IMG/VR virus record: IMGVR_UViG_3300021060_000040
Location: 1-64,000 of that record
Origin: a virus
Lineage: Duplodnaviria; Caudoviricetes
DNA: 64,000 nt
Direction: 5' to 3' (one strand)
Shown here: in pieces, positions 937-63,022 of the stretch
Numbering within the stretch: position 1 is the first letter of the stretch
Layout: every line of letters begins with the position of its first letter
Position numbers and translations under genes: made by a program
Notes under the pieces: generated by a model
Seen by the model: only the letters and a program-made list of their open reading frames with translations
What the model was told of the DNA's origin: nothing
Databases searched by the model: none

Positions 937-1002
937 ATCATTTGCACAGTTGCGCGTATGCAAATTAAAGGCTTGCGCGATTGCAACTGGCGCCTTACGT
1001 TC

Positions 1003-1014
1003 TGACAAATGTCA
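1003..1014. promoter_or_regulatory. Palindrome TGACA-AA-TGTCA, probable antitoxin operator
   Basis: Perfect 5-bp inverted repeat about 20 nt upstream of the antitoxin start. Confidence 0.45.
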
Positions 1015-1033
1015 TGACGACAAGGAGGTCAGC

Positions 1034-1261
1034 ATGATCGCACTCAAGGTGACCCAGAATGGCAACTCCCTCAGCCTGACGCTGCCGAAGGAGGCCTCCA
1101 CCCGGCTGAAGGTCGAGAAGGGCGACGTCGTCCATCTGACCGAAGCACCGGACGGGAGCTACAGGCTCACGCCCTACAACCCGGACTTCGAGAGCCAGAT
1201 GGCCGTCGCGCAGACGGTCATGAAGCGTCGTCGCGAGGCTCTGCGCGAGCTCGCGAAGTAG
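1034..1261 (+). CDS. AbrB/MazE-family antitoxin
   Basis: LKVTQNGNSLSLTLPK...LKVEKGD swapped-hairpin motif; AAGGAGG RBS; directly upstream of Doc. Confidence 0.9.
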   Translation: MIALKVTQNGNSLSLTLPKEASTRLKVEKGDVVHLTEAPDGSYRLTPYNPDFESQMAVAQTVMKRRREALRELAK

Positions 1262-1270
1262 GGCTTCTCG

Positions 1271-1648
1271 ATGAGGGTATGGGTACTCAAGGACGTCGTG
1301 TGCGCTTTGCACGACGAGCAGTTGGCTGAGCACGGCGGACCGGCAGGCATCCGCGCCGAGGGGATGCTCGACTCCGCCCTCGGCCGGCCACAGAACCTGG
1401 AAGCCTACGGCGACCCGCCGCCCGATCTCGCCGATCTGGCAGCGGCCTACGCCTTCGGCTTGGCGAAGAACCACGGTTTCGTGGACGGGAACAAGCGGAC
1501 CTCGATGGTCGTGACCGAAACGTTCCTCGAGCTGAACGGACGGCCGCTGACCGCCACGAACGCCGAGATCGTAACCGCGTGGCTGGCGCTCGCTGGAGAC
1601 GAGATGGACGAAGCGGCCATGGCCGCCTGGATCAGGGCGCGGATCTAG
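1271..1648 (+). CDS. doc: Doc (Fic-family) death-on-curing toxin
   Basis: HGFVDGNKR Fic/Doc motif. Confidence 0.92.
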   Translation: MRVWVLKDVVCALHDEQLAEHGGPAGIRAEGMLDSALGRPQNLEAYGDPPPDLADLAAAYAFGLAKNHGFVDGNKRTSMVVTETFLELNGRPLTATNAEIVTAWLALAGDEMDEAAMAAWIRARI

Positions 1649-2423
1649 CTTGTGAATGCTGGTCGCCGGCTGTGTCGGCGACCAGCTCCGTCACCCGGAA
1701 CTCGAGACCGCGCCCGCCGGTCGCCCTGCGCCGTTCGACGTTTTGGTAGCGCTGAGCCAGGTAGCGCAGCACCTCCGAAGTTCGGCTCGATGAGATCTCG
1801 CAGGCCTCGGCAATATCGGCGGTTGTCATCCATACGCCCCGAGCCTGAAGAAGCTCGATAACCTGTTCAACTTGTTGATCGAATTGACTGCCCGACGCTC
1901 CGGGCCAGTTCGAAGGCACCTCAGCCACCTGCTCCAGAACAATGTCTGTTCTTGGTGGCGGCTCCTTCTCGTCGACCTTGACGTAAGAGTTTGGCCCACC
2001 TTGGCCGTCGATCGGTCTTAGTCGGGCGAAGAGCTCGTTCCCGCGGCCTGGCTGTCGATTGGGATCGCGTGTGCCGAGCTGCAAGATGCCCTCGCTCGCC
2101 AGGTGACGGAGGCGCAGAACGATCTCGTTGGGCGCGTAATCGAGCGCTCGACCGATCTCCGCGGCGGATTGCCAATGGCCGCCTTCGAAAAACGCGAGAA
2201 TTGCAACACGCTCAGCACGCAAATCGGTGCTTTGAAATGTATGCCGTTTTACGATTAAACTAATCGCACCTCGATTATCGAGAGGCTCCAACAGGCTTAT
2301 AACTTTATCGATAGTTAACCGATCTTCTTCAGTCGTTATTTCTTTAAATACAGTCGCTGAAAGATATAGGCGCTCAAATGTTTGTTTTATGGCCATGAAT
2401 GCAATCCGCATTGAACAGCCCAA
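1632..2423 (-). CDS. Hypothetical protein with two winged-HTH-like domains (start uncertain)
   Basis: SAAEIGRAL..LRHL and TTADIAEAC..SSRTSEVLRYL repeats; lower GC than flanks. Confidence 0.6.
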   Translation of the reverse strand: MGCSMRIAFMAIKQTFERLYLSATVFKEITTEEDRLTIDKVISLLEPLDNRGAISLIVKRHTFQSTDLRAERVAILAFFEGGHWQSAAEIGRALDYAPNEIVLRLRHLASEGILQLGTRDPNRQPGRGNELFARLRPIDGQGGPNSYVKVDEKEPPPRTDIVLEQVAEVPSNWPGASGSQFDQQVEQVIELLQARGVWMTTADIAEACEISSSRTSEVLRYLAQRYQNVERRRATGGRGLEFRVTELVADTAGDQHSQARSAP

Positions 2424-2523
2424 CGGGCGCCCGCTCGGGGACTGAGCATATCAAGAAGCTAAGCCATATCCCAACCGCAAGAGCAACGAGACGGAACAGA
2501 CGCTCCGTCCCAGCGCCCCTACC

Positions 2524-2844
2524 TTACGCCCAGAGTGGATTCTCCTCAATCTGCGGAAGCACGGCGTCGGCCGAAATCCGCTCCCGCTCCGTGTCGTGAT
2601 ACGGTCTCCAGTACGGCGGGTGCGTGACAAGATCCCGGTCGGCGACCTGCGGCAGCAACGTGCCGCAGATCCACGCCTGGGCACTCGGGTCGACACCCTC
2701 GGTTGGGCGCACCAGGACGGCGCGCTCGTACGCGTCTCGGATTTCCTGGCCGTAGACCAGGGGGACGCACTTCTCCGCGTCCAGGCCAGCCCACTTGATC
2801 AGGGCGTTGGCGTGGGCGAGCGACCCGGCGACGACGGCATACAT
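2524..2844 (-). CDS. Hypothetical protein
   Basis: MYAVVAGS...; TAATG coupling to the upstream gene. Confidence 0.65.
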   Translation of the reverse strand: MYAVVAGSLAHANALIKWAGLDAEKCVPLVYGQEIRDAYERAVLVRPTEGVDPSAQAWICGTLLPQVADRDLVTHPPYWRPYHDTERERISADAVLPQIEENPLWA

Positions 2845-3284: not shown

Positions 3285-3374
3285 TGGTGGTCCTCTTGTT
3301 GTTCAGAGAAAAATCAGCTCGCCATCGAGGGCGAGGGGGCATCGAGGTGCAGGCCGGCGTCCTAGCCGGCCGTG

Positions 3375-3557: not shown

Positions 3558-3583
3558 TGTTTGCCTCTTGGTTGTTGATTGAC

Positions 3584-6404: not shown

Positions 6405-6450
6405 CCGTTTGCATTTCGTTTGCATAGCGCAAACGCGCAAGCGCTGTCAA
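6405..6450 (-). promoter_or_regulatory. sigma70-like promoter overlapped by a variant of the element motif
   Basis: Minus strand TTGACA-N17-CTATGC; spacer and -10 read GCTTGCGCGTTTGCGCTATGCAAAC. Confidence 0.6.
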
Positions 6451-9029: not shown

Positions 9030-9416
9030 ACAGGCCCCGCCCTTTCCAACAGGGGGGTGGGGGTCGTTTTCATACGCCGCGGCGGTCGGCGCCGCTCGGC
9101 GTCAGCGGATCGCAGGGATCTCGCAAGCTCTTGTATTTTAGGGAAAAATGGGTCTTTTAGGGGTCGGGAAAATACGCGCCTTACCCCACCCTACCCCCTT
9201 GACAGTGATAAAAAGACCACACCTGTTGAATTGATGCAACAGTGTGCCCATTTTGCACCTATATGCAAGGGATGTGCCAGTGACAGACCGCGGGTTCTGT
9301 CAGGTGCGCAGATGTCACAGTGTGGCAATAATGTTTTACTTGATTGGCGCAGACTTATACTTGACGAATGCTTCGGATTGCTTTAGTGTTGACTCGTGGT
9401 GTTGAGGACTACTGCC

Positions 9417-9749
9417 ATGAGCCTGCATCTCGAAGCTAAAGCGAACGAACAACTCGCAGCATTACTTGCAGAACGTCTTGTGCAAGCGATGCAAGGCGCC
9501 GCGACTCCCCAGGATACAGACACCGCAGACGCTGCGATTGCCGACCTGGAACATGCATTGAATGCTGCGCTGATAGGGGAAACCCCAAAGCCAAACAGCC
9601 CGCCGCTTGCGCTGCGCGGCCCCGTGGCGGGCAATAGCCCTTTGGCCGCTGTAACCCTGCGGATTTCAACCGTCGCCCACTGGCGGGCCGTTTCCGCCCG
9701 CGCAAAGGCACATGCGCTTATTTGCGCGATTTCAAGCAAACGGCATTGA
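9417..9749 (+). CDS. Possible hypothetical protein
   Basis: GAGGA RBS then MSLHLEAKANEQ; atypical codon usage. Confidence 0.35.
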   Translation: MSLHLEAKANEQLAALLAERLVQAMQGAATPQDTDTADAAIADLEHALNAALIGETPKPNSPPLALRGPVAGNSPLAAVTLRISTVAHWRAVSARAKAHALICAISSKRH

Positions 9750-9914: not shown

Positions 9915-10847
9915 ATGACCACGCAACTTGCTCTTATGGGTTCCACGGCCCTCGCACTCGCCGATATCGAGATTGATGCGGAGGAGGCCGCGCAGAACGC
10001 CTTCGCAGACGAAGGCACCAAGGTAGCGGACAGTCTCCAGTCCCGCGCCGCGAAAGCCTCGCTTCACGCCCTCGCCAAAACCGACGCATGGTCTCGCAAG
10101 GCCGCTCTGAGCCTTGGGCTCACGCTCTGCGCAGAGCAAATCCGGGAAACGCTCACCGGGATGGAATACGGCGCGGAAAAGGATGCGTTCGTATTCCGCA
10201 AGGTGGTTCTATTCCCGGCCGCGCTGGCCGGCGCCATGATCTTCGAAAACACGGAAACGGAAGTAGCCGCGATCCGGGCTGCTAAGCCCAACTCGGACGA
10301 ACGCAAGGCGTTGGCGCGGGCCTACATCATGCGCAAGCAAACCAAAGATACGGGTCTCGTTTCCAGCTTCAAGACGCAACGCACGGTCGGTTTCCGGCTG
10401 GCGGCTTGGGTCCGGCTCAATGCCAAGGCGAAGCTAATCAATGTCGCCCGGCTCTCAATGTCGAGCCTCGATAAGGCCGAAGAAGCGTGGGACGTTCTCG
10501 TTTCCGAGAATTTCGGGAACACGTTCGATCGGATGGCGTCCAAGCTCAAGGCGTGGGACGACGCTCGCAAGCCGGCCAAGGCGCCGCGGTCCGGCAAGGG
10601 CGAAAGCGTCAAGGGCGACACGGTGGACGCGGCCGAACGGGCGGCACAAGATGCGGCCCATGCCCGGCGCGATCCGGTTGCCGCGATCATGGCGCAGGTG
10701 GAAGCCTTAGACGGCACGCAACTCGCCAGCTTGTTGCACCGGCTCAAGGCGCATTGCGCCGACCGCGAGACGGATGCGGCCGAAGCGGCCCCGGCGGAAG
10801 CGGCGCCCGCCGTCATCGCCCTCCTACCGCCCGCCAAGGCCGCATGA
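9915..10847 (+). CDS. Hypothetical protein, first gene of the rightward array
   Basis: 310-aa ORF; upstream TTGACT-N17-TACTTA at about 9746; ends KAA. Confidence 0.75.
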   Translation: MTTQLALMGSTALALADIEIDAEEAAQNAFADEGTKVADSLQSRAAKASLHALAKTDAWSRKAALSLGLTLCAEQIRETLTGMEYGAEKDAFVFRKVVLFPAALAGAMIFENTETEVAAIRAAKPNSDERKALARAYIMRKQTKDTGLVSSFKTQRTVGFRLAAWVRLNAKAKLINVARLSMSSLDKAEEAWDVLVSENFGNTFDRMASKLKAWDDARKPAKAPRSGKGESVKGDTVDAAERAAQDAAHARRDPVAAIMAQVEALDGTQLASLLHRLKAHCADRETDAAEAAPAEAAPAVIALLPPAKAA

Positions 10848-13044: not shown

Positions 13045-14784
13045 ATGGCCTCTCTCTGCCGCCTTCACGCTCTCGATTGCGTCCTGAACGCTACTTCGCG
13101 CACCGTCACCCAGCGCGGCGAGACCCTTCTCGCCTGGGTCGATTGCCTGCTGCGGGCCGAGCATCCGTCTCCGCGGCGGATCGAGGCCTGCATCGCGGCG
13201 ATCGAGGCCGAATTCGGCATCCACGCCTGAAATCGCGGGCTTCCGTTTGCGTGATTTCACGCGAACCGCAACAGAGCTGCGCAGCCATGCTGCGCAGCTG
13301 AGATTCGTGCGTGAGCCATGCGGGCCACGCAAATCATCGGCCGACCCTTCGTCCCGTCCATCCGGTCCGCGGTGGCCAGCGCCGAGGGCCTGCGTCCTCG
13401 CGCTTGCGCGATTGCAAGCGTTATGCAAACGAAATGAGGCAAGCATGAGCGATCCGACCCTGGCCGCCATCCTCATCCTGGCGATGCCGACCACGGTGAT
13501 GAGCGCCCTCTGGCTCGTGGGCCACCAGCGGTACGGCCGGCCGGCGCCCTCTCGGGTCCGGCAGAGCGACGTCGTCATCATCCGCAAGCGCTGAGAATCG
13601 CGATGAACCTGTATCTCGGCCTCACGAGGCCCTTCGAACCCCTGCCGGTCCATCCGGCGCGCCTTACCGCGCTCGATCAGGCCTACCAGGCGATTTACGC
13701 CCTGGGCGGCACGGTCGACCCCGTCAGCCAGGAGGATGTCGAGCACGACGCCGTCGTCAGCGAGATCATCCAGTTCATCGCGGACCTGGGCGGCATGCTG
13801 CCCGCGGACCGTAAGCACTGGAGGGGCTGATGCGCGTCAACCGCTCCTTCTCCTTCCCGCTCGACGAGATCGAGGCGCGTTTCCCGCGCCTGACGTCGGC
13901 GGTCCAGTGGGCGATCATCGGCTCGCGCGACGAGGCGCGAGGCGCCCTGCGCAATCACCTGGCCGGCAACGCCTGGGCCGGCGAGGCGGTCAATCACTTC
14001 GGCGGCACTCTGGAGGCGATCCGCGCCGGCATCCGGTCGCGGCATGTCGTCCGGCGCATCCAGGGCCTCCGGCAAACCCATCCGGAAGCGAGGACCTGAC
14101 GATGCGCTGCCAGGAAATCGGCGCGAACCGCTACGGCGCGTTCATGGGCCGGCCGTTGCTCGGCAAGGACAAGTCCGTCCCGCCGGAGGCCGCGCCCTTC
14201 TCCCTGCGGCGGGTCTATCTGGACCGCGGTGGCTACGACCCGGGCGGCGCCTATTGGGGCCTGGGTGCGCCGCTCTACGAGTTCGCGGGGCCCGATCCCG
14301 AGATCTCGGGCTTCGTGCGCGGCAGGACCCGCGAGGCCGCGAAAGCCGAGGTCCGCAAATTCCATCCGTCCGCGCGGTTCTTCCGATGAACCTCAGCGAC
14401 CTGTCAGGAAAGGACTGGCACGACACCATGCTGACATTCGAGCAGATCGCGGCCCTCACGCCGCTGCGAGACCCGCGCGGCCGGACGGTCAACACCGTCC
14501 TGCACGAGCTGAACACGGCCATCGCCGGAGCGGGCGTCGAGTTCGGCGAGAGCGAATTCTCGGGGATGATGGCCCGCCTCAGCGAGATCACCACGATCGA
14601 CGATTATCGCTGGATCGACGTTGCAGCCGTCCGCGGCGGCAACGAAGGATACTACATCCACATCACGCTGGTGCCGGTCCATCACGGCAGCCAGCCGTCT
14701 CGGCTTATCTCGACGGCGAAGACGTGGACCTGGGCGTCGGCGCTGGAGATCGTGGCGGTCGCCACACGGCTGCTCGACAGCTGA
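13045..14784 (+). CDS. Run of small hypothetical genes: 13045-13230, 13445-13594, 13603-13830, 13830-14099, 14102-14389, 14386-14784
   Basis: Tightly packed, partly coupled ORFs with high GC3; 14102-14389 has LDRGGYDPGGAYWG. Confidence 0.65.
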
Positions 14785-14834
14785 ACGCGCGTCGGCCAGC
14801 GTGTCGAAGAACATACCAGAAACGTCCGGGTTTG

Positions 14835-15284
14835 TCAATCCCCACAGATAGTTACGAACCCGAACCCGAGCCGGTCCGACAACGGTCCGATCCCGTAGTC
14901 CCGGCGTAGCCCCTCGATCACCAGCTCGGCGATCCGGGCTTTGAAGTCCGCAAGCCTCTGCCGGGTGAACCCGTCCTTCGAGCGCCCAAGCAGCCCGGCG
15001 ACGTGCCGCGCCTTGGCCCCCAGCGCCACGGCCGCGGCCGCCTGCCGGACTCCGACCGGGCTCGCGCCGCGGTAACGCATGTAGCGCAGCCAGGTCATCA
15101 CCCAGCTCGCCCTGTTCCTGTCCAGGCCGTCGCCGCTCTTCATGGCCGCGACCTCGCGCTCCAGCATCGTCCAGATGACGTGCTCGGGCCGCGCCTGGGC
15201 GCCCCGATCGGACACAGTCCGCCGCGCTCCCTCGTCCAGCCAGTCGAGCACCTGGGACAGGGGCGGCCCTGCGTCCGTGTTCAT
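14835..15284 (-). CDS. Shortened paralog of the DUF6362-like regulator at 44176
   Basis: IWTML..WLRYM..RQAAAAVALG..GLRRDYGI matches 44176-44763; motif upstream on the minus strand. Confidence 0.6.
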   Translation of the reverse strand: MNTDAGPPLSQVLDWLDEGARRTVSDRGAQARPEHVIWTMLEREVAAMKSGDGLDRNRASWVMTWLRYMRYRGASPVGVRQAAAAVALGAKARHVAGLLGRSKDGFTRQRLADFKARIAELVIEGLRRDYGIGPLSDRLGFGFVTICGD

Positions 15285-15425
15285 GCCGCCGGTGTATTTG
15301 CAATCGCGCAAATGCGCAAGCGGCCCCAACCCGCCTGCCACGCCGGTAAATCCGGCTTTCTGTTTGCGTGTTTGCGTGATAGCTAACTGATACGCAAACG
15401 GCGCTCACCAACCGAGGGAGTCACC

Positions 15426-15781: not shown

Positions 15782-15830
15782 CCCGTCCGACAGCTTGCGT
15801 GAATTCGCGCATAACGCACACGAGGCAACC

Positions 15831-21918: not shown

Positions 21919-22842
21919 ATGAACGCTCAGGTCTCGATCAAGGCCCTCACCGCCGGAGCCACCCCGGTCAACCCGCTCGCCGACCGCGCCATGCTGGTGG
22001 GCGTGAAGCTGTCGATGTGGACCGGGCGCAAGCTCGACAAGGCGGCCACCGAGAAGGTCAACAAGGACCACGACGCGGCCGAGGATGCCGGCCGGTACAA
22101 CAAGAGCCTGATCGCCAAGGACGCGCTGAAGCGCATCACCAAGGCGGTCAACGACGCCCGGGCCGCCCACTACGAGCGGACCCTCCCCTGGGCGGACGAG
22201 GGCCTGCGGATCCTGCCGGCGGCCGCCTACGAGATGTACCAGAACGACATGCGCCGGCGCCGCACCGAGTTCGAGGCCGCGGTGGACGAGTTCGCCGGCC
22301 AGTACGCCGGGTACAAGCTGGAGGCGATCCGGCGGCTCGGCGGCCTCTACAGGGAGGACGAGTTCCCGGACATCTCCCGGATCCGCGAGCGGTTCTCGTT
22401 CGGCCTGCGGGTGCTGCCGATGCCCGACGCCGCGGATTTCCGGGTGACGCTGGGCTCGGGCGCGGTCGAGAAGATCCGCGCCGACATCGAGGCCTCCATG
22501 CAGGAGGCGCTCGAGGACGCGATGAAGGACGCCTGGAGCCGGATCGTCGACAAGGTCGGCCGGGTCGCCGACCGGCTGACCAAGTACCAGCCGGGCACCG
22601 ACGGCACCCGCGCCGAGGGCACGTTCCGGGACTCGCTGATCCAGAACGTCAGGGACCTGGTCGACATCCTGCCGACCTTCAACCTGACCAACGACCCGGT
22701 CCTCCACGCCACCATCGAGCGCATGCGCAACGAGCTGTGCGGCGCCGACGTGCAGGTCCTGCGCGACAACCCCGTGGTCCGGGCCGAGACGGCCGCGGCG
22801 GCCCAGTCGATCCTCGAGACGGTCGCCGAATACCTCGCCTGA
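21919..22842 (+). CDS. DUF3150-like protein
   Basis: WTGRKLD..K.LI..TLPW...G.R.LP; usual partner of AAA/vWA genes. Confidence 0.65.
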   Translation: MNAQVSIKALTAGATPVNPLADRAMLVGVKLSMWTGRKLDKAATEKVNKDHDAAEDAGRYNKSLIAKDALKRITKAVNDARAAHYERTLPWADEGLRILPAAAYEMYQNDMRRRRTEFEAAVDEFAGQYAGYKLEAIRRLGGLYREDEFPDISRIRERFSFGLRVLPMPDAADFRVTLGSGAVEKIRADIEASMQEALEDAMKDAWSRIVDKVGRVADRLTKYQPGTDGTRAEGTFRDSLIQNVRDLVDILPTFNLTNDPVLHATIERMRNELCGADVQVLRDNPVVRAETAAAAQSILETVAEYLA

Positions 22843-22930: not shown

Positions 22931-23983
22931 ATGCTGTACCCCGTCGCCCAGCAGACCCTGAAATACGCCCTCGAGCACGGCACGATCCCCTTCCTCAAGG
23001 GGCCGCCCGGCGTCGGCAAGACCGACATGATCACCGCAGTGGCGGCCGAGCTCGGCCGGCCGGTGGTGACCGAGACGCTCGCCACCATGGAGGCGATCGA
23101 CCTGCGTGGCCTGCCCAACACCGACCACGCCACCCGCACGGTGTGGTGGGCCAAGCCCGACTTCATCGAGAAGCTGGAGCAGGCCAGCGCCCACGGCACC
23201 AAGGCGCCGATCCTGTTCATCGACGAGGCGAACGCCGTCGGCCAGGCGCTGCAGGTGCCGATGATGCAGCTGACCCTGCGCGGCGTGATCGGGCCGCACA
23301 CGCTGCCCGACGGCACCTCGATCGTGCTGGCCGGCAACCGCCGCGCCGATCGGGCCGCCGCCCAGTCGTCGCCCACGGCGCTGAACAACCGCGTCCAGCA
23401 CCTGCCGGTCGAGGTGTGCGTCAAGACCTGGCTGAAATGGGCGGCCAACGCCCAGCTGCACCCGGCGATCTGTGCCTTCATCATGCTGCGCGGCGAGGGC
23501 CAGAAGGGCGCCAACGGCCAGCCGGACAAGCCCGGGATGCTGCACCACTTCGACCCGACCAAGCCGGACGAGGAGGCGTTCCGCAGCCCACGCACCTGGG
23601 CGATGTGCCACCCCTGGGTGGACGCGCCGGACGAGATCCGCGAGGGCGGCATCCGCGGCATCGTCGGCGAGCACGGCTCGACGGAGTTCAAGGGCTTCCT
23701 GGACGTCTTCCGCAACCTGCCGCCGCTGGCCTCGATCATCGCCAACCCGGACACCGCCAAGGTGCCGACCAACTCGTCGATCGCCTACGCGGTGACGATC
23801 GCGCTCTCCCGCGCGGCCAACGGCGGCAACCTCGCGAACATCCTCAAGTACCTGGCCCGCCTGGGCAAGGAATTCGAGGTGATGGGCCTGACCGACGCCG
23901 TCCGGCGCCACGAGGCCGCCGAGCTGCACAACACCACGGCCTACATCCACTGGCAGGCCGCCAACTCCGACATCACGGTCTGA
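22931..23983 (+). CDS. MoxR/AAA_5-type ATPase
   Basis: Walker A GPPGVGKT, DLRGLP, Walker B ILFIDE, AGN, NR, SPRTW. Confidence 0.9.
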   Translation: MLYPVAQQTLKYALEHGTIPFLKGPPGVGKTDMITAVAAELGRPVVTETLATMEAIDLRGLPNTDHATRTVWWAKPDFIEKLEQASAHGTKAPILFIDEANAVGQALQVPMMQLTLRGVIGPHTLPDGTSIVLAGNRRADRAAAQSSPTALNNRVQHLPVEVCVKTWLKWAANAQLHPAICAFIMLRGEGQKGANGQPDKPGMLHHFDPTKPDEEAFRSPRTWAMCHPWVDAPDEIREGGIRGIVGEHGSTEFKGFLDVFRNLPPLASIIANPDTAKVPTNSSIAYAVTIALSRAANGGNLANILKYLARLGKEFEVMGLTDAVRRHEAAELHNTTAYIHWQAANSDITV

Positions 23984-23994
23984 GGAGTGGCCCG

Positions 23995-24306
23995 ATGACC
24001 ACGATTCCCCACACACCACCCCCCTGGACCTTCCGGGCCGACGGCGAGGCCAACCACTACACGCTGATAGGGCCGGACGGCCGCTGGCTGATCTCCTTCC
24101 TGCACAATGGCGAGCAGTTGACCGCCAAGCAGGAAGCCAACGTCCGCGTCATGGCCGCCGGGCCCGGAATGCTGGCGGAGCTGAAGGCCTGCGAGGACGC
24201 GCTCCTCGCTGCGCTGCCCCACGCTCCCCGGATCCGCGACATCCTCAAGGCCCGCCTGGATGGGGTGCGCGCCGCCATCACAGCAGCGGAGACCATGGTT
24301 CGATGA
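23995..24306 (+). CDS. Phage HTPxPW-type hypothetical protein
   Basis: HTPPPW...ANVRVMAAGPGMLAEL. Confidence 0.7.
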   Translation: MTTIPHTPPPWTFRADGEANHYTLIGPDGRWLISFLHNGEQLTAKQEANVRVMAAGPGMLAELKACEDALLAALPHAPRIRDILKARLDGVRAAITAAETMVR

Positions 24307-25589
24307 AATCCACGCACGTCCGCGACCTGCCGGCCCGCGATCGCCTGATCCGGGCCCGCACCCTGCTCACCCAGAGCCATGCCTTCTACGCCTCGCTCGC
24401 CCTCCACATGGAGCCGCGCGAGGATGCCGGCGTGCCGACGGCCGAGGTCGACGGCAAGCACATGTTCTACAACCCGAACTACGTGACCGGCCTGACCGAG
24501 CCCGAGCTGATCGGCCTGGTCGTCCACGAGACCAAGCATATCGCGCTGCTGCACCATGTCCGGCGCGGCGGCCGCGACCCGGCCGAGTGGAACGTCTCGT
24601 GCGATCTGGCGATCAACCCGGGCCTGATCGCCGAGGGTTTCACCCTGCCGAAGGGCGCCCTGCTCGATCCGACCTTCGCCGGGATGAGCGCCGAGCAGAT
24701 CTACGCCGAGCGGCAGCGCCGCAAGCAGCAGCCCCAGCCGCCGCAGGATCAAGACCAGGATCCTGACGCGGACCAGGACGGTGATCCCGCCCAGGATCAA
24801 CCGGGGGCGAACGATCCCGGGCAGGATCAGGACGACGATGGCCAGGACGGGGACGGCGGCCAAAGCCAGGCCGGCGGCGACCCGGGCGGCTGCGGCGGCG
24901 TGCGCGACGCCTATCTCGAGGAGGGCCAGGGCGTCGACGCCGCGGCGGCCGAAACCGAGGCCATGGTGCGCCAGTGCGCGGCCGTGGCAGCCAGGGGCGC
25001 CGGCGAGGGCGGCCTGCCGGACGCGATCAGCCGGCTGCTCGACGAGTTGAACCAGCCCCGCGTGAACTGGCGCGAGGAGTTCGGACGCTTCGTCGACAGC
25101 GTGGCCTCGAGCCAGCCGACATGGAATCGGCTCGATCGGCGCATGCTGGCGCTCGGCTACTCGCTGCCCGGGCGCACCCCGGACGCGGTCGAGGAGATGG
25201 TGTGCTTCGTCGATTCCTCGGCCTCGATCCCGCGGGACGGCGCCACGGCGTTCGCCAGCGAGGTCCAGGCGATGCTCGATACCGGGCGCGTCAGCCGGAT
25301 CCACGTCGTCTCGGTCGACGATGCGGTCCGCAACGTCCAGGTGTTCGAGCTCGGCGACACGGTGGCCAAGCTCGACATCAAGGGCGGCGGCGGCACCCGG
25401 TTCGACGTCGCGTTCGACTGGCTGGCGGACAACGCGCCGGACGCCGCGGCCGCCATCTACCTCACCGATCTCGACGTCTGGAGCGACGAGTGGGGCCGCC
25501 CCCCGGCCTGCCCGGTGCTGTGGACCGTCTACGGCGGGAAGCGCTGGGCGCCCTTCGGCGAGATCATCCCGCTCGATCCCTATCAGTAG
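24303..25589 (+). CDS. DUF2201 metallopeptidase-vWA protein
   Basis: HETKH (HExxH), acidic linker, MIDAS DSSAS, GGGT, YLTD. Confidence 0.88.
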   Translation: MKSTHVRDLPARDRLIRARTLLTQSHAFYASLALHMEPREDAGVPTAEVDGKHMFYNPNYVTGLTEPELIGLVVHETKHIALLHHVRRGGRDPAEWNVSCDLAINPGLIAEGFTLPKGALLDPTFAGMSAEQIYAERQRRKQQPQPPQDQDQDPDADQDGDPAQDQPGANDPGQDQDDDGQDGDGGQSQAGGDPGGCGGVRDAYLEEGQGVDAAAAETEAMVRQCAAVAARGAGEGGLPDAISRLLDELNQPRVNWREEFGRFVDSVASSQPTWNRLDRRMLALGYSLPGRTPDAVEEMVCFVDSSASIPRDGATAFASEVQAMLDTGRVSRIHVVSVDDAVRNVQVFELGDTVAKLDIKGGGGTRFDVAFDWLADNAPDAAAAIYLTDLDVWSDEWGRPPACPVLWTVYGGKRWAPFGEIIPLDPYQ

Positions 25590-37849: not shown

Positions 37850-38392
37850 CTAACTACCTCCTTCGTTCATGGCGCCGACCGTGACAAACCAGACCTCGAA
37901 AGCTCGCTCGCGGGCATTTGCGTTGCAAATGGGACGCAAACGGGTGTATGGGGGTTCGTCGCAGGAGATGGACACGAAACGCTCCCCAACACCGCGATAG
38001 CTATTCGCGTTTGCGTGCGCTTGCAAGTAGGCAAACGCAGTTTGAACCACAAAAGCGCATGTTGACCCCGCCAAAGTCTTATGTTCCCGCTTTGTTCTCG
38101 TCTGCGGGGGGTGGGATATGTTGCTGGCCGAGCACATGAGCCGCCTACCGAGCAGTAAACCTCGGATGGAATGCAGACTCGGCCGCCGGAATATATCGGG
38201 TACGCGTTTTGACCTCAGGCACCCCAGAGAACAATCTAAGATGCTCTCCGGGAGGGCGCTCAAGGAATTTCAAATCCCAGCGTGATATTTCTTGATACCG
38301 TATTCCATAACCCAAATAAAATCTAACAATGATGCATATGGCCTGACGTAAAACTTGCACGCAAGCGCTCGCGCAAACGTTGCTCTGGATGG

Positions 38393-42801: not shown

Positions 42802-43314
42802 ATGGCAGGCTCGGTCAACAAGGTCATTCTGGTCGGCAATCTGGGGCGCGACCCGGAGGTGCGCCGGCTGGGCAGCGGTGACCCCATCTGCAATCTCCGC
42901 CTCGCGACGACCGAGTCCTGGAAGGACAAGGCCTCCGGCGAGCGCAAGGACAAGACCGAGTGGCACTCGGTCGTGATCTACAACGAAAACCTTTCCAAGA
43001 TCGCCGAGCAGTACCTGCGCAAGGGCTCGAAGGTCTATATCGAGGGCCAGCTCCAGACCCGGAAATGGACCGACAACGCCGGCGTTGAGAAGTACACCAC
43101 CGAGGTGGTGCTCCAGCGCTTCCGCGGCGAGTTGACGATCCTCGACGGCCGAGGCGGCGGCGACGATGCTGGAGACGATGACGGCGGCCGCGGCCAGGGT
43201 GGCGACCGCCGTCCGGCACAGGCATCGCGCGGCGGTGGCCGGCCATCCGGCGGCCGGGCGCAGGGCGGCTACGACCTCGACGACGACATCCCGTTCGGCC
43301 CCGAGTTCCGCTGA
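42802..43314 (+). CDS. ssb: Single-stranded DNA-binding protein
   Basis: MAGSVNKVILVGNLGRDPE...DDDIPF. Confidence 0.97.
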   Translation: MAGSVNKVILVGNLGRDPEVRRLGSGDPICNLRLATTESWKDKASGERKDKTEWHSVVIYNENLSKIAEQYLRKGSKVYIEGQLQTRKWTDNAGVEKYTTEVVLQRFRGELTILDGRGGGDDAGDDDGGRGQGGDRRPAQASRGGGRPSGGRAQGGYDLDDDIPFGPEFR

Positions 43315-48096: not shown

Positions 48097-49062
48097 ATGC
48101 AGCTGTTTCGCCGGACCGGCCACCTGTGCATGTCGATGGCCGCCAAACGGGACCGGCGGCTGACCATCGGTGGGTCGGACGCCAAGATCATCATGGGCGA
48201 CAATCCGGACGCCCTCTTACACCTGTGGCAGGAGAAGCGCGCCGAGATCGAGATCGAGGACGAGTCCGGCGAGGAAAACGTCCTCCAGCGTCTCGGCTAC
48301 GTGACCGAGCCACTCAACTACGACCTCTTCGAGTACCACACCGGGCTCTACGTCACGGACGAGCAGGAGAAGGCGTTCCGCGACGACTTCCCGTTCATGC
48401 ACGCCACGCTCGACGGCAAGGTGCGCAGGGAGCTGCTGGGCTCGGTGATCGGCATCATGGATGCCAAGTTCAACCTGCCATTCAACAACTGGTCGATCGA
48501 GAAGGCCCTCGAGACGCACTGGGCGCAGCTGCAGCACAACGCCTTCGTGGTCGACGTCGACCGGGTCTGGCTGTCGGTGATCAAGGCCACCGGCGGCTAC
48601 GCGCTGATCGAGGCCGAGGCCGACCCGTTCTACCAGGTTCAGTTGGTCCGGGCCGAGCGGGAATTCGTCCGGTGCGTCGAGACCGGCGACGTCCCCCAGC
48701 AGGCGGCTGTGGCGGCGCGCAAGCTTGGCCCCAAGCCCGAGCCGATCAAGGTCTACGACATGACCGTGTCGTCCTCGGCCAACGAATGGGCGGTTCTGGC
48801 CCAGCACATCCAGGAGACCCTGCCAGCCGCCGAGCTCCATGCGGCCAGCAAGGACCGACTCAAGAAGCTGGTCCCCGACGACGCCGCCCTGGCCTCGGGG
48901 CACAGCGTGTCGATCAAGCGATCGAAGGCCGGCGCGGCCCTCTTCGACATCACCGGCGCCAAGGCGGCCCGGGAGCAGGCGAAGGTGGCGCTCGACGGCG
49001 AGCCCACCCCCAAGCCCAGGCGCTCCCGCGCCAAGGCACAACCCCAAATGGCCGCGGCCTGA
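48097..49062 (+). CDS. YqaJ/lambda-exonuclease family protein
   Basis: IGGSDA, LW.EK, HATLDG, DAK, AQLQH. Confidence 0.88.
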   Translation: MQLFRRTGHLCMSMAAKRDRRLTIGGSDAKIIMGDNPDALLHLWQEKRAEIEIEDESGEENVLQRLGYVTEPLNYDLFEYHTGLYVTDEQEKAFRDDFPFMHATLDGKVRRELLGSVIGIMDAKFNLPFNNWSIEKALETHWAQLQHNAFVVDVDRVWLSVIKATGGYALIEAEADPFYQVQLVRAEREFVRCVETGDVPQQAAVAARKLGPKPEPIKVYDMTVSSSANEWAVLAQHIQETLPAAELHAASKDRLKKLVPDDAALASGHSVSIKRSKAGAALFDITGAKAAREQAKVALDGEPTPKPRRSRAKAQPQMAAA

Positions 49063-53330: not shown

Positions 53331-54386
53331 ATGCACACCAGACCTATGCGGCTCGGCGTCTATATCGGTCGCTTTCAGCCGTTCCACCTGGGCCACCTGC
53401 ACGTCGTGCGCCAGGCACTCGCGCATTGTGACCGGCTCCTGATCCTGATCGGCTCCGCCGACGAGCCGCGCACCACCCAGAACCCATGGACCGCCGCCGA
53501 GCGGGGCTCAATGATCCGCGCGGGCCTGCCCGGCGACATCCCGGACGTCACCGACACAGCGCCCGTGCGCGACTTCGAGAGCAACTTCACCTGGGCCGCG
53601 GGTGTCCGCGCCGCGGTGCAGAAGCACCTTGCCGACCTCGGCTGGTCGGGGGCCGAGGTCCTGCTCGCCGGCCACGCCAAGGACCACACGTCGTTCTACC
53701 TGGGCATGTTCCCGGAATGGGGCTCGCTCGACGTCGACAACTTCCGCCAGCTGTCGGCGACGCCGATGCGGGAACGGTTCTTCGACTGCGGCCAAGCGCT
53801 TGCGATCGATGAGGTCGGGATCGACGTCCACGACTGGGCCGAGGAATGGTTCTACCAGAACGCCCAGGCCGTCGGCTGGCTCACACGGGAATACGGCGCC
53901 GTCCGCGAGTTCCGGGCGCACTGGCGGATGGCTCCCCACCCGCCGACCTTCATCACCACCGATGCCCTCGTCGTCTCGGCCGGGCACGTCGCCGTGATCC
54001 AGCGCGGCAAGTTCCCGTTCCGCGGCCTGCGGGCGCTGCCCGGCGGCTTCCTCGAGCCGAACCTCAGCCTGCTGGACAATACGCTGAAGGAGTTCAGCGA
54101 GGAGTGCCTGGACGGCAAGTCTGCGGAGCTGCTGCGCTCCCACTTACGCGAGGTCCGGGTGTTCGACGCGCCCGGCCGCGACCCGCGCGGGCGCTTCGTC
54201 TCCCACGTCCACCTGTTCGACCTGCACGGGGCCTTCCCGACGCTCACCGGCGGCGACGATGCCGAGTGGGCCGGCTGGGTGCCGATCGACCGCTTGGAGC
54301 GGTCCGAGATGGCCTTCGACCATTTCAAGATCATCCGCTCGATGACGGCTCGACACGTCGTCGACACAACCCTCAAGGCTGCCTGA
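53331..54386 (+). CDS. nadM: Bifunctional NMN adenylyltransferase/Nudix hydrolase (NadM-Nudix)
   Basis: IGRFQPFHLGH, NPW..ER, SAT, ALPGGF Nudix box, RDPRGR, GDDA, FDH. Confidence 0.93.
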   Translation: MHTRPMRLGVYIGRFQPFHLGHLHVVRQALAHCDRLLILIGSADEPRTTQNPWTAAERGSMIRAGLPGDIPDVTDTAPVRDFESNFTWAAGVRAAVQKHLADLGWSGAEVLLAGHAKDHTSFYLGMFPEWGSLDVDNFRQLSATPMRERFFDCGQALAIDEVGIDVHDWAEEWFYQNAQAVGWLTREYGAVREFRAHWRMAPHPPTFITTDALVVSAGHVAVIQRGKFPFRGLRALPGGFLEPNLSLLDNTLKEFSEECLDGKSAELLRSHLREVRVFDAPGRDPRGRFVSHVHLFDLHGAFPTLTGGDDAEWAGWVPIDRLERSEMAFDHFKIIRSMTARHVVDTTLKAA

Positions 54387-54389
54387 CCC

Positions 54390-55799
54390 TTGTTCATCAA
54401 AGACCTTAACCCGTGCCTCGTGGTCGATGGATATAAGCCCAGTCACTGGGCCCAGCTGCCGCCCGACATGAAGGCCGGCTTCGGCTACATCGAGAGCCGC
54501 GGCGGCCGCCACAGGGAGACGCTGTTCTTCGGGCTCCAGGCGCAGCTGGCCTATCTTCGGCAGCGCATCACCCACGAGCACGTCGACGAGGCCAAGGCGT
54601 TCTACGCGCGGTACTACCCGCCAGCCTACCCGGGCCTGTTCAACGAAGCCGGCTTCCGGCGCATCGTCGATGTCCACGGGGGCTACTGGCCGGTGAGGAT
54701 CTGCGCGGCGCCCGAGGGCAGCCTGATCCCGACGGGCAACGTGCTCCTATCGATCTCGACGAGCGATGATCAGCTCCCTTGGGCCGGCGGCTACCTGGAG
54801 AACCGCCTGCTCCGCTCAGTCTGGTACCCCACGACTGTCTGCACCGAGTCGTTCATGATCAAGCGGGTGATCAAGCACTTCCTGGATCTGACCGCCGACG
54901 ATCCGGACGCCGAGCTGCCGTTCAAGCTGCACGATTTCGGCTCCCGTGCGGCGAGCTCAACGGAATCGGCCGGCCTCGGCGGCATGGCGCACCTGGTCAA
55001 CTTCCGGGGCACCGACACGATCGAGGGCATCCTGGCGGCGATGCGCTTCTACGGCGCCGACGTGTGCGGATCCTCGATCCCGGCCTCGGAGCACTCGACG
55101 ATCACAGCCTGGGGCCGCGCCGGCGAATGCGACGCCTACGCCCACATGCTGGCGACCTTCGGCCGGCCGGACGGCATCTTCGCCTGCGTCTCGGACAGCT
55201 ACGACATCGATAACGCCGTCACGAACCTCTGGGGCGGCGAGCTGCGCCAGCGCGTGATCGACAGCGGCGCCACGGTGGTGATCCGGCCGGACTCGGGCGA
55301 TCCGGTGAAGACCCCCTGCCAGACCGTCGAAGCCCTGGCCGAGAGCTTCGGGTTCACGCTCAACCGGAAGGGCTACAAGGTCCTGAAGAACGTGCGGGTG
55401 ATCCAGGGCGACGGCGTCGACGCGGAGAACATCCGGTCGATCCTGTTCTGGCTGCAGATGGGCGGCTTTTCGGCCAGCAACATCGCCTTCGGCATGGGCG
55501 GGAAGCTCTTGCAGGCCGGCATCGACCGGGACACCCAGCGCTTCGCCATGAAGCAGTCGGCGGTCTACCGCGGCGGCCGGTGGCTCGAGACCTACAAGGA
55601 TCCGGTCGGGGATCCGGGCAAGGCCAGCAAGCGCGGCCTGCTCGCGCTGACGCACGATAATGACAACGGCTGGGAGACCGTCCCGCTGTTCGGCGAGCGG
55701 CTGCAGCCCAACCAGCTCCAGCCGAGCTACGACACGGGGTGGTTTGCGCCGCCTGTGTCGTTCGAAGCCGTCCAAAAACGCGCTGCCGCTGCCCTCTGA
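54390..55799 (+). CDS. nadV: Nicotinamide phosphoribosyltransferase
   Basis: DGYKPSH, LHDFGSR, PASEHS, VSDSYD, IRPDSGDP, IQGDG, FGMGG. Confidence 0.95.
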   Translation: MFIKDLNPCLVVDGYKPSHWAQLPPDMKAGFGYIESRGGRHRETLFFGLQAQLAYLRQRITHEHVDEAKAFYARYYPPAYPGLFNEAGFRRIVDVHGGYWPVRICAAPEGSLIPTGNVLLSISTSDDQLPWAGGYLENRLLRSVWYPTTVCTESFMIKRVIKHFLDLTADDPDAELPFKLHDFGSRAASSTESAGLGGMAHLVNFRGTDTIEGILAAMRFYGADVCGSSIPASEHSTITAWGRAGECDAYAHMLATFGRPDGIFACVSDSYDIDNAVTNLWGGELRQRVIDSGATVVIRPDSGDPVKTPCQTVEALAESFGFTLNRKGYKVLKNVRVIQGDGVDAENIRSILFWLQMGGFSASNIAFGMGGKLLQAGIDRDTQRFAMKQSAVYRGGRWLETYKDPVGDPGKASKRGLLALTHDNDNGWETVPLFGERLQPNQLQPSYDTGWFAPPVSFEAVQKRAAAAL

Positions 55800-57284: not shown

Positions 57285-60815
<3,531 letters not shown>

Positions 60816-60910
60816 CCTGAGAAACAAGCCCCCGGGCGACTCTGGGGGCTTGCGCGTTTGCGCGATTGCAAATACAAAGCAAACAGCAAACGCATTCGGC
60901 AGGTCAGGCC

Positions 60911-61357
60911 ATGGCAAGCGAATTCAAATGGTACGCCTCGCACGACCAGGAGAACTATACGATCGGCCCCTGCGACTCCCGTGAAGCGGTAATTGAGCAG
61001 GCCGTAAACGATGATCTTGGCCTGCGCCAGGGCCCGGAAGGACACTGGGACCGGCTGACCTTCCACATTCTGGAGGCCACCCAGGACCCGATCGACCTCT
61101 CGAACCACCTCGACGAAGACTCCGTCATCGAGGGGCTCTGCGAGAGCGTCGACGAGAACCACGGCGATCCCGACGGCGCCCGCTGCCTGCTCGAGGATGC
61201 CTGGAACACTGAACAGGAGGAGGACCTCCGGGACCGCCTGCGCAAGGCGATCGCCGAGTGGCAGGCCCACCACGCGATCGTGGTCAGGCCCTGGACCTTC
61301 ACCCGAACCCGCAACGCCGAGACGGTGGACGTCCAAGTCCCGCTCCCGGTCAACTGA
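60911..61357 (+). CDS. Hypothetical acidic protein
   Basis: ORF after the motif at 60858. Confidence 0.7.
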   Translation: MASEFKWYASHDQENYTIGPCDSREAVIEQAVNDDLGLRQGPEGHWDRLTFHILEATQDPIDLSNHLDEDSVIEGLCESVDENHGDPDGARCLLEDAWNTEQEEDLRDRLRKAIAEWQAHHAIVVRPWTFTRTRNAETVDVQVPLPVN

Positions 61358-61365
61358 GCCCCGAC

Positions 61366-61809
61366 ATGAACGACAATTTCAAGCTGGACCCGGACGGGTT
61401 GGCGGCAGCCGGTGGGCTGCTTCAAAGCCAATGCCACGGCGCATCGCGCTCGGCCGGCTGGTGGAACCACAACGCGACCGGCCTCGACCTGCGCAGGATC
61501 GTGCGCAAGCCGGAAAGCGCGCTGGAGACCCTGCTCGCCGGCGCCCTGGTCGCGCAGAAGCTCTGCCTCAGCCACAGCGAGATCAGCGAAGCCATGGAAG
61601 GCCAGCGAAAGGGCCTGATGGACGACAAGCTCCCGCACCGGCCGATGATCGAGGTCGAGATCGCCGACGGGATCATCCGCCTGTTCGACCTGGGCGGCGC
61701 GCTCAACCTCGATGTCGGCGGTGCCATCGCCGAGAAGATGGCCTTCAACGCCGTCCGCCTCGACCACAAGGCAGAGGCCCGCGCAGCAGCCGGCGGCAAG
61801 GCCTTCTGA
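61366..61809 (+). CDS. MazG-like NTP pyrophosphohydrolase
   Basis: HSEISEAMEG.RK...EVEIAD..IR..D. Confidence 0.8.
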   Translation: MNDNFKLDPDGLAAAGGLLQSQCHGASRSAGWWNHNATGLDLRRIVRKPESALETLLAGALVAQKLCLSHSEISEAMEGQRKGLMDDKLPHRPMIEVEIADGIIRLFDLGGALNLDVGGAIAEKMAFNAVRLDHKAEARAAAGGKAF

Positions 61810-61811
61810 GC

Positions 61812-62045
61812 GTGAGCTCGCTGGCATTCGTCATCGTCGCCTGCTCGGCGCTCGCCGGCAGTCCGCATCGCGACCAGTGCCGCGAGATCCACGTCCCCGT
61901 CACCGCGGACGCACCGCCCCTGGCCTGCATGGCTAGGGGCCAGGAATTCGTCGCGTCCCACCCCGAAGCCTTTGAGGGCGTCGACGTCATCGCCTTCGGC
62001 TGCGCCGAGCGCGCCCCGCAGGCCAACACAGGACAGACTCAGTGA
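61812..62045 (+). CDS. Small Cys-containing exported protein
   Basis: LAFVIVAC..C...C...C. Confidence 0.55.
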   Translation: MSSLAFVIVACSALAGSPHRDQCREIHVPVTADAPPLACMARGQEFVASHPEAFEGVDVIAFGCAERAPQANTGQTQ

Positions 62046-62305
62046 GCAAAGACCCGAAGGAAGTCGCGACGAGTGGTGTCGCGGCCGATGAGCTGAAACA
62101 GTTCATCGAGCGCCTGGAGCGGCTTGAAGAGGAGAAAGCTGGCATCCTCGAAGATATCAAGCAGGTGTTCCTCGAGTTGAAGGGGCGCGGATTCGACGGC
62201 AAGGCGGTGAAAACCATCTTGCGCATCCGCAAGCAGGACCGCAGCGAACGCCAGGAGCAGGAGGCGATCCTCGAGCTCTACATGCAGGCGCTGGGCCTCG
62301 AATGA
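62042..62305 (+). CDS. gapR: GapR/DUF2312 nucleoid-associated protein
   Basis: LKQFIERLERLEEEK..DIK.V..E.KGRGFD.K...ILELYMQALG. Confidence 0.92.
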   Translation: MSKDPKEVATSGVAADELKQFIERLERLEEEKAGILEDIKQVFLELKGRGFDGKAVKTILRIRKQDRSERQEQEAILELYMQALGLE

Positions 62306-62644
62306 TCGTCCAACTCCTCACCAGCATCCGCCGGCTGCTCAGCAGCCCCGGGACGCACGCATCCTGGTCGGCCGGGCGTTCGGCTCCCCCAGGTGCCGGC
62401 TCCGAGCCCGAGGCGATCCTCCCCCTCGCCATCACCATGAACGCGGCTCTTGCCGGCCCGTTCGGCGTATTCATCGCGGCCAAGAGCTGCAAGAGCAAGG
62501 ATATCGAAACATGATGTGGGCCCTCGTCTCCCGCGTTGGAGATCTTCTGCAGCTGATCGGGCTGCTCACCGTCGGACAATGGATCTGGAAGGCCTCGCGG
62601 AACTTCTCGACCGCTGTTGCAACCTTCAAGGCAAAGTTCGCCTG

Positions 62645-62842
62645 ATGCGCCAGATCCTCGTCCTCATCGCGCTCATCCTGGTCGGCACGTCGGCCGCCCT
62701 GATTACGCTGGCCGGCTACGCCCAGCACATCATTACGTGCATCAAGAATGAGGCCATCGGCATGCTCGTGGTCGGCATGCTGGTGGCTCCGCTTGCCGTC
62801 CTGCACGGCTTTGGCATCTGGCTGGGCTTGTTCGCCCGCTAG
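62645..62842 (+). CDS. Small membrane protein
   Basis: Two hydrophobic segments. Confidence 0.6.
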   Translation: MRQILVLIALILVGTSAALITLAGYAQHIITCIKNEAIGMLVVGMLVAPLAVLHGFGIWLGLFAR

Positions 62843-63022
62843 CGCGTTTTTCTGTGTTTGCATGCTTGCGCGATTGCAAACGGTAAGCTAACAAGATCTC
62901 ACCAGCCGCGGCGCAGCCCGGGCGGTCCTCGGAACGAAAGACCTGAGCAACCGACGCGACCTCGTCGCGGCTGGACTGAATTCCTGCGTCTGAATGACGG
63001 GAATAACCTGAAAGAATTTAAG

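Follow-up and report, generated by a model that had tools for sequence, protein, structure and literature searches.

An oriented 14-bp word at the gene junctions of a family of large temperate phages is a candidate operator/roadblock array

Bases 1–64000 of the 118,226-bp IMG/VR provirus record IMGVR_UViG_3300021060_000040 (Caudoviricetes) form the stretch of DNA analyzed here, called the window below, and the entire record is referred to as G000. Its gene junctions carry a repeated, transcription-oriented 14-bp word, TTGCGCGATTKCAA, which we consider a candidate operator/roadblock array. G000 encodes a toxin–antitoxin (TA) pair composed of a Phd/MazE-type antitoxin and a Fic/Doc toxin (1034–1648, +), a DnaQ-like exonuclease, RusA, a RecE-like exonuclease and NinB/Orf, as well as a nicotinamide adenine dinucleotide (NAD) salvage pair (53331–55799, +) consisting of a NadR-like NMNAT-Nudix fusion and the nicotinamide phosphoribosyltransferase NAMPT, with one copy of the word ahead of it. 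A primase-helicase and a single-stranded DNA-binding protein (SSB) were named by their matches to genes so annotated in Bradyrhizobium phage BDU-MI-1 (121 kb), the closest named relative, and a protein of 1176 amino acids shares 61% identity with the annotated class II ribonucleotide reductase of that phage. Beyond 64 kb, G000 encodes a thymidylate synthase, a head scaffold protein, and a replication-initiator-like protein together with ParA (69811–72467). By its gene content, G000 resembles a temperate phage of large size that carries plasmid-type maintenance genes; the TA pair, the replication-initiator-like gene and ParA suggest a P1-like plasmid-prophage lifestyle. The original prediction, made from the letters of the window, had proposed control of the TA, early, replication, NAD and ter genes through the word; by our gene assignments, it precedes the Phd/Doc-type TA pair, the replication and recombination genes and the NAD-salvage genes.

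The exact word occurs 19 times in the window, 18 times on the + strand and once on the − strand (15298), at precisely the coordinates predicted, and it did not occur in 100 dinucleotide-preserving shuffles of the window. Allowing up to two mismatches yields 24 copies against 0.9 expected. Over the entire record, 23 exact copies and 32 copies at ≤2 mismatches were counted, the + strand copies ranging from 973 to 76190 and the − strand copies beyond the window from 88797 to 112720, where they track the minus-strand structural genes. The scan at ≤2 mismatches also recovered the three predicted one-mismatch copies (32506, 48052 and 55822) and the copies at 950 and 13247, with two mismatches each. 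More degenerate copies at 6427 (−), 15372 and 31809 are present with three mismatches each; the one proposed at 15795 is present as well, but weaker, with ~4 mismatches. The word comes in two subtypes with a zoned distribution: TTTCAA (T subtype) accounts for six of the eight copies at 9–22 kb, TTGCAA (G subtype) for seven of the ten at 29–63 kb, and the T subtype makes up 13 of the 32 copies in G000. The low-GC stretches are free of any copy, as had been noted, and are flanked by the copies at 29285 and 30979.

Each of the 32 copies is placed between a stop codon and a start codon on the same strand, or within the over-extended 5' end of a longest open reading frame (ORF); the copies at 13247 and 13404 overlap a doubtful antisense ORF only. 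Likewise, all 32 are co-oriented with the downstream gene, the minus-strand copies (15298 and 88797–112720) heading minus-strand genes, in line with the predicted stoperator-like orientation with transcription. The information content spreads past the 14-mer, giving (C)G(C) TTGCGCGATTKCAA ACG-N4-GCAAAC as the extended consensus. The auxiliary half-sites described earlier were found again: nine of the 32 copies have a TTGC 8 nt upstream of the word, and 12 of the 32 repeat the GCAA(AC) downstream at a start-to-start spacing of 11 nt, i.e., about one helical turn. Between the end of the 14-mer and the start codon lie 11–17 nt in 12 copies, 22–27 nt in about seven and 31–179 nt in the rest, so that 19 of 30 copies have a start codon within 27 nt. 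One of these start codons, at 31015, is backed by an N-terminus conserved in six lineages. In the compact copies a Shine-Dalgarno sequence follows 1–3 nt past the word, outside the 14-mer; hence a transcript carrying this ribosome site must start inside or upstream of the word. The copies at 18–22 kb have ~27 nt in common, ribosome site included, and about eight copies in G000 directly follow strong hairpins. For the 52 nt upstream of the copies, the folding energy averages ~−16 kcal/mol, which we judged ordinary for such GC-rich DNA. At G000 90963–90980 and 97753–97770 (−), beyond the window, two copies form part of 18-bp near-palindromes, TTGCGCGA(T/C)TTCGCGCAA; these two head-to-head left halves hint at TTGCGCGA as the basic recognition unit. 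The features of the window that bear on the array are collected in Table 1.

Table 1. Copies of the 14-bp word and associated features in the window (coordinates as in G000).
Start	End	Strand	Feature
950	963	+	Copy with 2 mismatches (TTGCGCGTATGCAA), tandem neighbour of the 973 copy
973	986	+	Exact copy, G subtype; 47 nt upstream of MazE/Phd-type antitoxin gene (1034–1261), followed by Fic/Doc toxin gene (1271–1648)
6421	6450	−	Host-type promoter TTGACA-17 nt-CTATGC; degenerate copies over spacer, −10 and +1
9722	9735	+	Exact copy, T subtype, straight after hairpin; next gene 9915–10847
13247	13260	+	Copy with 2 mismatches, after hairpin
13404	13417	+	Exact copy, G subtype
15298	15311	−	Exact copy, flipped; 13 nt before ATG of lone minus-strand gene 14835–15285
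15372	15385	+	Degenerate copy, 3 mismatches, facing diverging + strand genes
18356	18369	+	Exact copy, T subtype; ATG 14 nt after, Shine-Dalgarno between
19125	19138	+	Exact copy, T subtype; stop 4 nt before, ATG 14 nt after
20025	20038	+	Exact copy, T subtype; stop 4 nt before, ATG 13 nt after
21231	21244	+	Exact copy, T subtype; ATG 17 nt after
21891	21904	+	Exact copy, T subtype; ATG 14 nt after; heads 21919–22842, then AAA ATPase and DUF2201/VWA protein
29285	29298	+	Exact copy, G subtype, straight after strong hairpin, at edge of low-GC insert
30979	30992	+	Exact copy, G subtype; ATG (31015) 22 nt after; junction with family motif in six lineages
31809	31822	+	Degenerate copy, 3 mismatches
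32506	32519	+	Copy with 1 mismatch (TTGCGCGAATTCAA)
35641	35976	+	Small Xre-type helix-turn-helix gene (Cro-like), second candidate reader, conserved in motif-bearing relatives
36237	36250	+	Exact copy, T subtype
37124	37849	−	Two-domain repressor, Xre-type helix-turn-helix plus LexA/lambda-CI-like C-terminal domain; best candidate reader
37850	38390		Divergent control region beside repressor gene; three degenerate TTGC/GCAA clusters (37915–37942, 38008–38037, 38352–38385)
38858	38871	+	Exact copy, T subtype; upstream of DUF1376 replication-type gene, ATG 38922
42752	42765	+	Exact copy, G subtype; upstream of SSB gene 42802–43314; junction kept in BDU-MI-1, G001, L232 and L233
43349	43362	+	Exact copy, G subtype
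48052	48065	+	Copy with 1 mismatch; upstream of RecE-like exonuclease gene 48097–49062; junction kept in relatives
49539	49552	+	Exact copy, T subtype; ATG 11 nt after
53285	53298	+	Exact copy, G subtype; upstream of NMNAT-Nudix (53331–54386) and NAMPT (54390–55799) genes
55822	55835	+	Copy with 1 mismatch; junction kept in BDU-MI-1 and G001
60858	60871	+	Exact copy, G subtype, straight after hairpin following class II ribonucleotide reductase gene (57285–60815)
62866	62879	+	Exact copy, G subtype

Extension of the analysis toward related genomes showed the word to be a trait of a phage family and not of its hosts. A search of IMG/VR with the exact G000 14-mer returned single chance matches only, so relatives were traced via their proteins; literature searches on the motif strings and on BDU-MI-1 gave nothing relevant. 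At least ten related phages and prophages of 114–127 kb, BDU-MI-1 among them, each have 19–30 copies of the sister word TTGC(T/A)(T/C)GAATGCAA. Within BDU-MI-1 and the 95-kb record G001 the most-repeated word is TTGC(T/A)TGAATGCAA(A), and at ≤2 mismatches 28 and 19 copies, respectively, occupy the same kind of site. Five more IMG/VR records (66–128 kb), found via their repressor homolog, hold 19–30 copies at ≤1 mismatch; the pattern counted in the relatives was TTGCWYGAATKCAA, and its reversed-pattern control gave zero. Compared with these relatives, the outer TTGC and GCAA are kept in G000, whereas positions 5, 6 and 9 differ, leading to the centre GCGATT in G000 and (T/A)(T/C)GAAT in BDU-MI-1 and more than 10 relatives.

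Two Bradyrhizobium genomes of 7.1 and 8.1 Mb contain 12 and 11 exact sister words, all of them inside one prophage (~110 kb of one contig in each genome) and none elsewhere, and the G000 word occurs 1–2 times per genome in the same two genomes. The array is thus element-specific and not equally dense on the host chromosome, as seen in the host genomes of two relatives, which do not include G000's own host. Related prophages sit in Bradyrhizobium and Rhodopseudomonas genomes; a related element occupies most of a 124.6-kb contig of a Bradyrhizobium assembly (G006 C21), and another relative is bordered by host DNA on its contig (G005 C10).

Four junctions with the word are common to G000, BDU-MI-1 and G001, namely 30979, 42752 (SSB), 48052 (exonuclease) and 55822, with flanking proteins of only 40–57% identity. 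In the structural module, word positions turn over between relatives; G000 88797 (−), an exonuclease junction, appears to have its counterparts at BDU-MI-1 52341 (−) and G001 88310 (+). Kept-yet-drifted words of this kind are seen among heteroimmune relatives of a repressor/operator system (PMC6550527).

A subset of copies overlaps promoters. A TTGACN-17 nt-TATTTG promoter heads the operon that holds the repressor homolog in four BDU-type genomes, and its −10/+1 region is overlapped by the variant TTGCACGAATGCAA or a close form of it. In BDU-MI-1 and G001 another copy begins just after the −10 of the near-consensus late-operon promoter TTGACA-17/18 nt-TATACA. These overlaps resemble operators and would fit such a role. 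Within the window, the proposed overlap of a TTGACA promoter near 6405–6450 with a variant of the word was confirmed: TTGACA lies at 6450–6445, and the promoter (6450–6422, −) is overlaid by two degenerate copies, one with three mismatches (6440–6427) and one lacking 1 nt, with two GCAAACG blocks behind them. Promoter overlap was observed for a few copies only. Over 60 kb of genes, E. coli-type (sigma-70) promoters are no commoner than in shuffles, and a stricter scan left only a handful; this scarcity fits long transcripts in need of internal blocks. A comparable layout, i.e., few strong promoters and long co-directional gene arrays broken up by blocks, is known from mycobacteriophage L5 (PMC6550527).

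Two further observations concern host-type promoters. The near-consensus promoters at 14810–14838 (−) and G000 116970–116998 (−) share the 16-nt sequence TTGACAAACCCGGACG; the first reads TTGACA-17 nt-TATGTT, the second, which heads the structural-gene operon, TTGACA-17 nt-TATACG. Furthermore, 9030–9480 is an AT-richer non-coding stretch with several TTGAC-type promoter-like sites, e.g., TTGACG-17 nt-TAGTGT, and with the 16-mer TTGCACCTATATGCAA, in which an inverted repeat frames a CTATAT −10-like core; the stretch may serve the long rightward gene array as its early promoter region. In the early region, 22931–25589 (+) encodes an AAA ATPase and then a DUF2201 metallopeptidase/VWA-like protein.

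Searches of ~50 proteins against Pfam and PHROGs yielded no regulators beyond two Xre-type helix-turn-helix (HTH) proteins, and both are candidate readers of the word. The better candidate (37124–37849) is a protein of 241 amino acids with a Cro/C1-type HTH. Its AlphaFold model (mean predicted local distance difference test score, pLDDT, 77.6) combines the HTH with a C-terminal beta domain, and the best PDB matches are LexA, lambda CI, 186 CI and UmuD. A homolog of 32–39% identity is found in every motif-bearing relative examined, and the more distant relatives G003, G004, L132 and the R. palustris prophage L234 possess neither the homolog nor the word. Its recognition helix, (A/S)PSTxLRxxN, is near-invariant in 14 homologs, in keeping with the outer TTGC and GCAA half-sites, which hardly vary either. 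In the 540-bp divergent region adjacent to the repressor gene, half-sites reach 23.6 per kb compared with 7.3 per kb genome-wide, a three-fold density. In the distant relative L249 the word reads TTGAT(T/C)GAATGCAA at 13447 and 15452 (−), i.e., C4 is replaced by A, and its repressor homolog has Ser for Ala at the first position of the recognition helix, which could be a co-variation with the word in this one genome. At one place in the LexA-like domain, the G000 repressor has MPDDAL and most relatives MPDDSF or MPDDSL; provided that the Ser is equivalent to the nucleophile of LexA, self-cleavage may be absent in G000.

The second candidate, a small Xre-type protein (35641–35976), had been missed by the longest-ORF gene call, its gene overlapping other frames. 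Homologs are present in BDU-MI-1 (14317–14601), G001 and 12 other relatives. Its putative recognition helix reads TKSSVQDL in G000 and T-P/T/A-Q-A/G-V/I-x-K/M/R-Y/Q in the BDU-type phages. This difference parallels the changed centre of the word, but an overall identity of 30% would give the same anyway.

Taken together, we see about an even chance that the word constitutes an oriented operator/roadblock array read by a phage HTH repressor. According to this model, the word would be the binding site of a phage-encoded DNA-binding regulator, with ~30 copies in the short gaps ahead of lytic genes for replication, recombination, nucleotide and NAD metabolism and some structural functions. In the prophage state the regulator would sit on the sites, occluding RNA polymerase where a site overlaps a host-type promoter and acting elsewhere as an oriented roadblock to transcription reading through the long co-directional gene arrays. 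One protein could thus silence a 118-kb genome, the two-domain repressor being the best candidate reader and the small Xre protein possibly a second one in the fashion of Cro. No consensus copies lie in the repressor operon, the replication-initiator/parA region or the low-GC cargo, for all of which expression in the lysogen is expected.

Several observations weigh against this model. Two copies precede the TA pair, which ought to be expressed in the lysogen as well. The site is strongly asymmetric, whereas a LexA/CI-type dimer is expected to favour a dyad. The location of about eight copies after strong hairpins is equally typical of a terminator-then-promoter arrangement, and the lone minus-strand gene 14835–15285 has no recognisable host promoter. 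In G000, no consensus copy lies on the late-operon promoter 116998 (−), and the divergent region of the repressor gene itself holds degenerate clusters only. Moreover, the GCGATT centre is invariant in G000, unlike in the relatives, while the recognition helix of the candidate repressor is unchanged. In Cluster A, stoperator motifs can still differ between repressors whose HTH domains are identical (PMC6550527).

Possible, though rather unlikely, is that the word is a compact phage-specific promoter of lytic genes, with transcription starting at or just past its 3' end and leaders of 11–17 nt. Its reader would be a host RNA polymerase redirected by an unrecognised phage factor, or an undetected polymerase. 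The word heads nearly every transcription unit, including the lone minus-strand gene behind the copy at 15298, which needs its own promoter; the copies following hairpins correspond to a terminator-then-promoter layout, and consensus sigma-70-type promoters over 60 kb of genes do not exceed their frequency in shuffles. The drift of the consensus among relatives is likewise typical of phage promoters, and one BDU-MI-1 gene is annotated as starting immediately past the word. However, six-frame searches of G000 detected no T7-type RNA polymerase (PF00940), no sigma-70 region 2 (PF04542) and no NusG paralog, and sigma region 4 (PF08281) scored only 11.9 bits inside a Rep-like gene, which is not convincing; very divergent factors could escape such profiles. 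These negatives weaken the non-canonical promoter that the original prediction had put beside an operator/roadblock, and we keep it as a rival. The two motif types have no conserved −10-like element (A at −11, T or C at −7) in common; the BDU-type word includes CTTGAA where G000 has CGCGAT. In relatives the word coincides with the +1 of consensus host promoters, a place in no need of a second promoter. It also precedes early-type and structural genes alike instead of one temporal class, and the phased auxiliary half-sites resemble a protein-binding array.

A bolder version, which we regard as clearly unlikely, takes the 14-mer with its GCAAAC follower as a self-contained promoter of a new type without −35/−10 logic, again with starts at the 3' end of the word and leaders of 11–17 nt. 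Here, host RNA polymerase would be reprogrammed by a factor unlike sigma factors, MotA-type activators or phage polymerases, and the variants that overlap promoters would mark the switch between transcription of the host type and of the phage type.

An action at the RNA level, with the word located in the mRNA leader by the ribosome site and serving either a phage translational regulator similar to T4 RegA or a nuclease that frees the messages by cleavage, seems very unlikely. Strict co-orientation with the genes, the Shine-Dalgarno sequence 1–3 nt past the word in compact copies and the start codon within 27 nt in 19 of 30 copies would all be expected. The overall range of 11–179 nt nevertheless leaves the copies at 31–179 nt unaccounted for, and the TTGC/GCAA stem is broken in the 13 T-subtype copies without a compensating change. 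In the promoter-overlapping copies of relatives, transcripts would start inside the word and lose part of it, and no RNA-binding protein was identified. Highly improbable, finally, is a role as junction cassettes, i.e., short identical linkers for recombination or gene shuffling without a regulatory reader: the copies do lie exactly at gene boundaries and those at 18–22 kb share ~27 nt including the ribosome site, but co-oriented direct repeats would cause deletions, so that their persistence needs a selective reason. In addition, more than 10 phages each have their copies homogenised to a consensus of their own, four junctions are maintained despite 40–57% protein identity, and variants overlap promoters.

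Other readings were tried and rejected. As a start codon follows within 11–17 nt in 12 copies, the word can serve neither as a −35 box, for which the original prediction had already found many copies too close to the ATG, nor as an activator box at −30 or −41.5. Sigma-70-type readings (TTGCGC as −35 with GCAAAC or AAACNN as −10, the upstream TTGC as −35, or a Caulobacter-type GCTANAWC −10 read in GCGATTKC) fail since they would put the transcription start past the start codon of the 12 compact copies or since the elements are not kept in the BDU-type word. The spacings of the sigma-54 (−24/−12) and sigma-32 consensus do not fit. An RNA hairpin is unlikely, as the T subtype (13 of 32 copies) breaks the C4-G11 pair without compensation; an RfaH/ops-like pause site was rejected because the six-frame searches gave no NusG paralog, and CcrM GANTC or CtrA boxes because they are absent from the word. 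FixK-like boxes have the consensus TTG(A/C)-N6-(T/G)CAA and are centred ~41.5 bp upstream of the transcription starts of host regulon promoters. Such a host CRP/FNR-type box was rejected on the grounds that the 14-mers are phage-confined in 7–8-Mb genomes and that a start 35 nt downstream is impossible in 12 copies.

Among characterized systems, the Cluster A mycobacteriophages match in cis-architecture. Their operators/stoperators comprise 20–30 transcription-oriented sites of 13–14 bp genome-wide, few of them on promoters, and related phages use similar but distinct consensus words (PMC6550527). The family described here resembles the systems of L5 gp71, Bxb1 gp69 and the TipsyTheTRex repressor in site size and number (23 exact and 32 near copies, 19–30 per relative), in the placement within short intergenic gaps in one orientation (32 of 32) and in having related-but-distinct words (GCGATT, (T/A)(T/C)GAAT and the TTGA variant of L249). 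In the relatives, some sites lie on the putative promoters of the repressor and late operons; in G000 only degenerate copies overlap a promoter. Differences are the alphaproteobacterial host, the phage size of ~118 kb and the partial TTGC-N6-GCAA dyad with phased auxiliary half-sites, Cluster A sites being without dyad symmetry. In addition, Cluster A repressors are monomeric proteins of an HTH plus a second domain acting without cooperativity, in contrast to the LexA/lambda-CI-like two-domain, dimer-type fold of our candidate, whose gene moreover has a divergent control region. Homology of the candidate to L5 gp71-type repressors was not found, Pfam giving HTH_26 only and no mycobacteriophage repressor being among the matches listed. 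Once bound, Cluster A repressors stop transcription elongation. By analogy, the array would work like a stoperator/operator network, and we do not file it as a member of the Cluster A family.

In terms of lifestyle, the C1 operators of phage P1 are the closest analogue. They are asymmetric, 17 bp long and about 17–20 in number, each on a promoter. Like G000, P1 is large and temperate and encodes ParA, a replication initiator of plasmid type and an addiction pair of the Phd/Doc type. In both, one asymmetric word is dispersed genome-wide, the operator of scattered lytic functions in P1 and a candidate for this role in G000; the copies in G000 differ in being denser and mostly without a recognisable promoter. 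SPbeta, with its SPBRE sites and MrpR/YopR, offers a further possible parallel in its repeated oriented intergenic word, its size of >100 kb and a master repressor as reader. MrpR, however, has an integrase-like fold instead of the HTH/LexA type of our candidate, the host is unrelated and the word different.

The 434 operator has the geometry ACAA-N6-TTGT, and classical switches have 3–6 operators at one locus. Our word shares with the 434/lambda Cro/CI sites the length of 14 bp and the 4-bp outer half-sites 6 bp apart, and the proposed reader the Xre-type HTH with a LexA-like C-terminal domain. G000 stands apart by its ~30 oriented copies over 118 kb and by their invariant, asymmetric centre. 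The suggested analogy to the start-associated sequences (SAS) of cluster K mycobacteriophages did not hold: SAS are conserved, gene-oriented words of 13–14 nt upstream of many start codons as well, but they stand at a near-fixed 3–8 nt, compared with 11–179 nt here, and include the ribosome site, which lies outside our 14-mer.

Experimental tests of oriented genome-wide arrays of repressor sites come mainly from Cluster A mycobacteriophages and, in a different form, from P1 and SPbeta. The same cis-architecture is found here in an uncharacterised family of ~120-kb temperate phages and phage-plasmids of Bradyrhizobium, the soybean symbionts, with a candidate repressor of the classical LexA/CI class. 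The word also provides a cheap marker for spotting members of this phage family in genomes. If the proposed function is confirmed, silencing by many small roadblocks would be a convergent solution for large prophages. It would then also give a handle on the immunity groups of Bradyrhizobium phages (GCGATT versus TGAAT centre) and on the silencing and induction of these prophages in inoculant strains.

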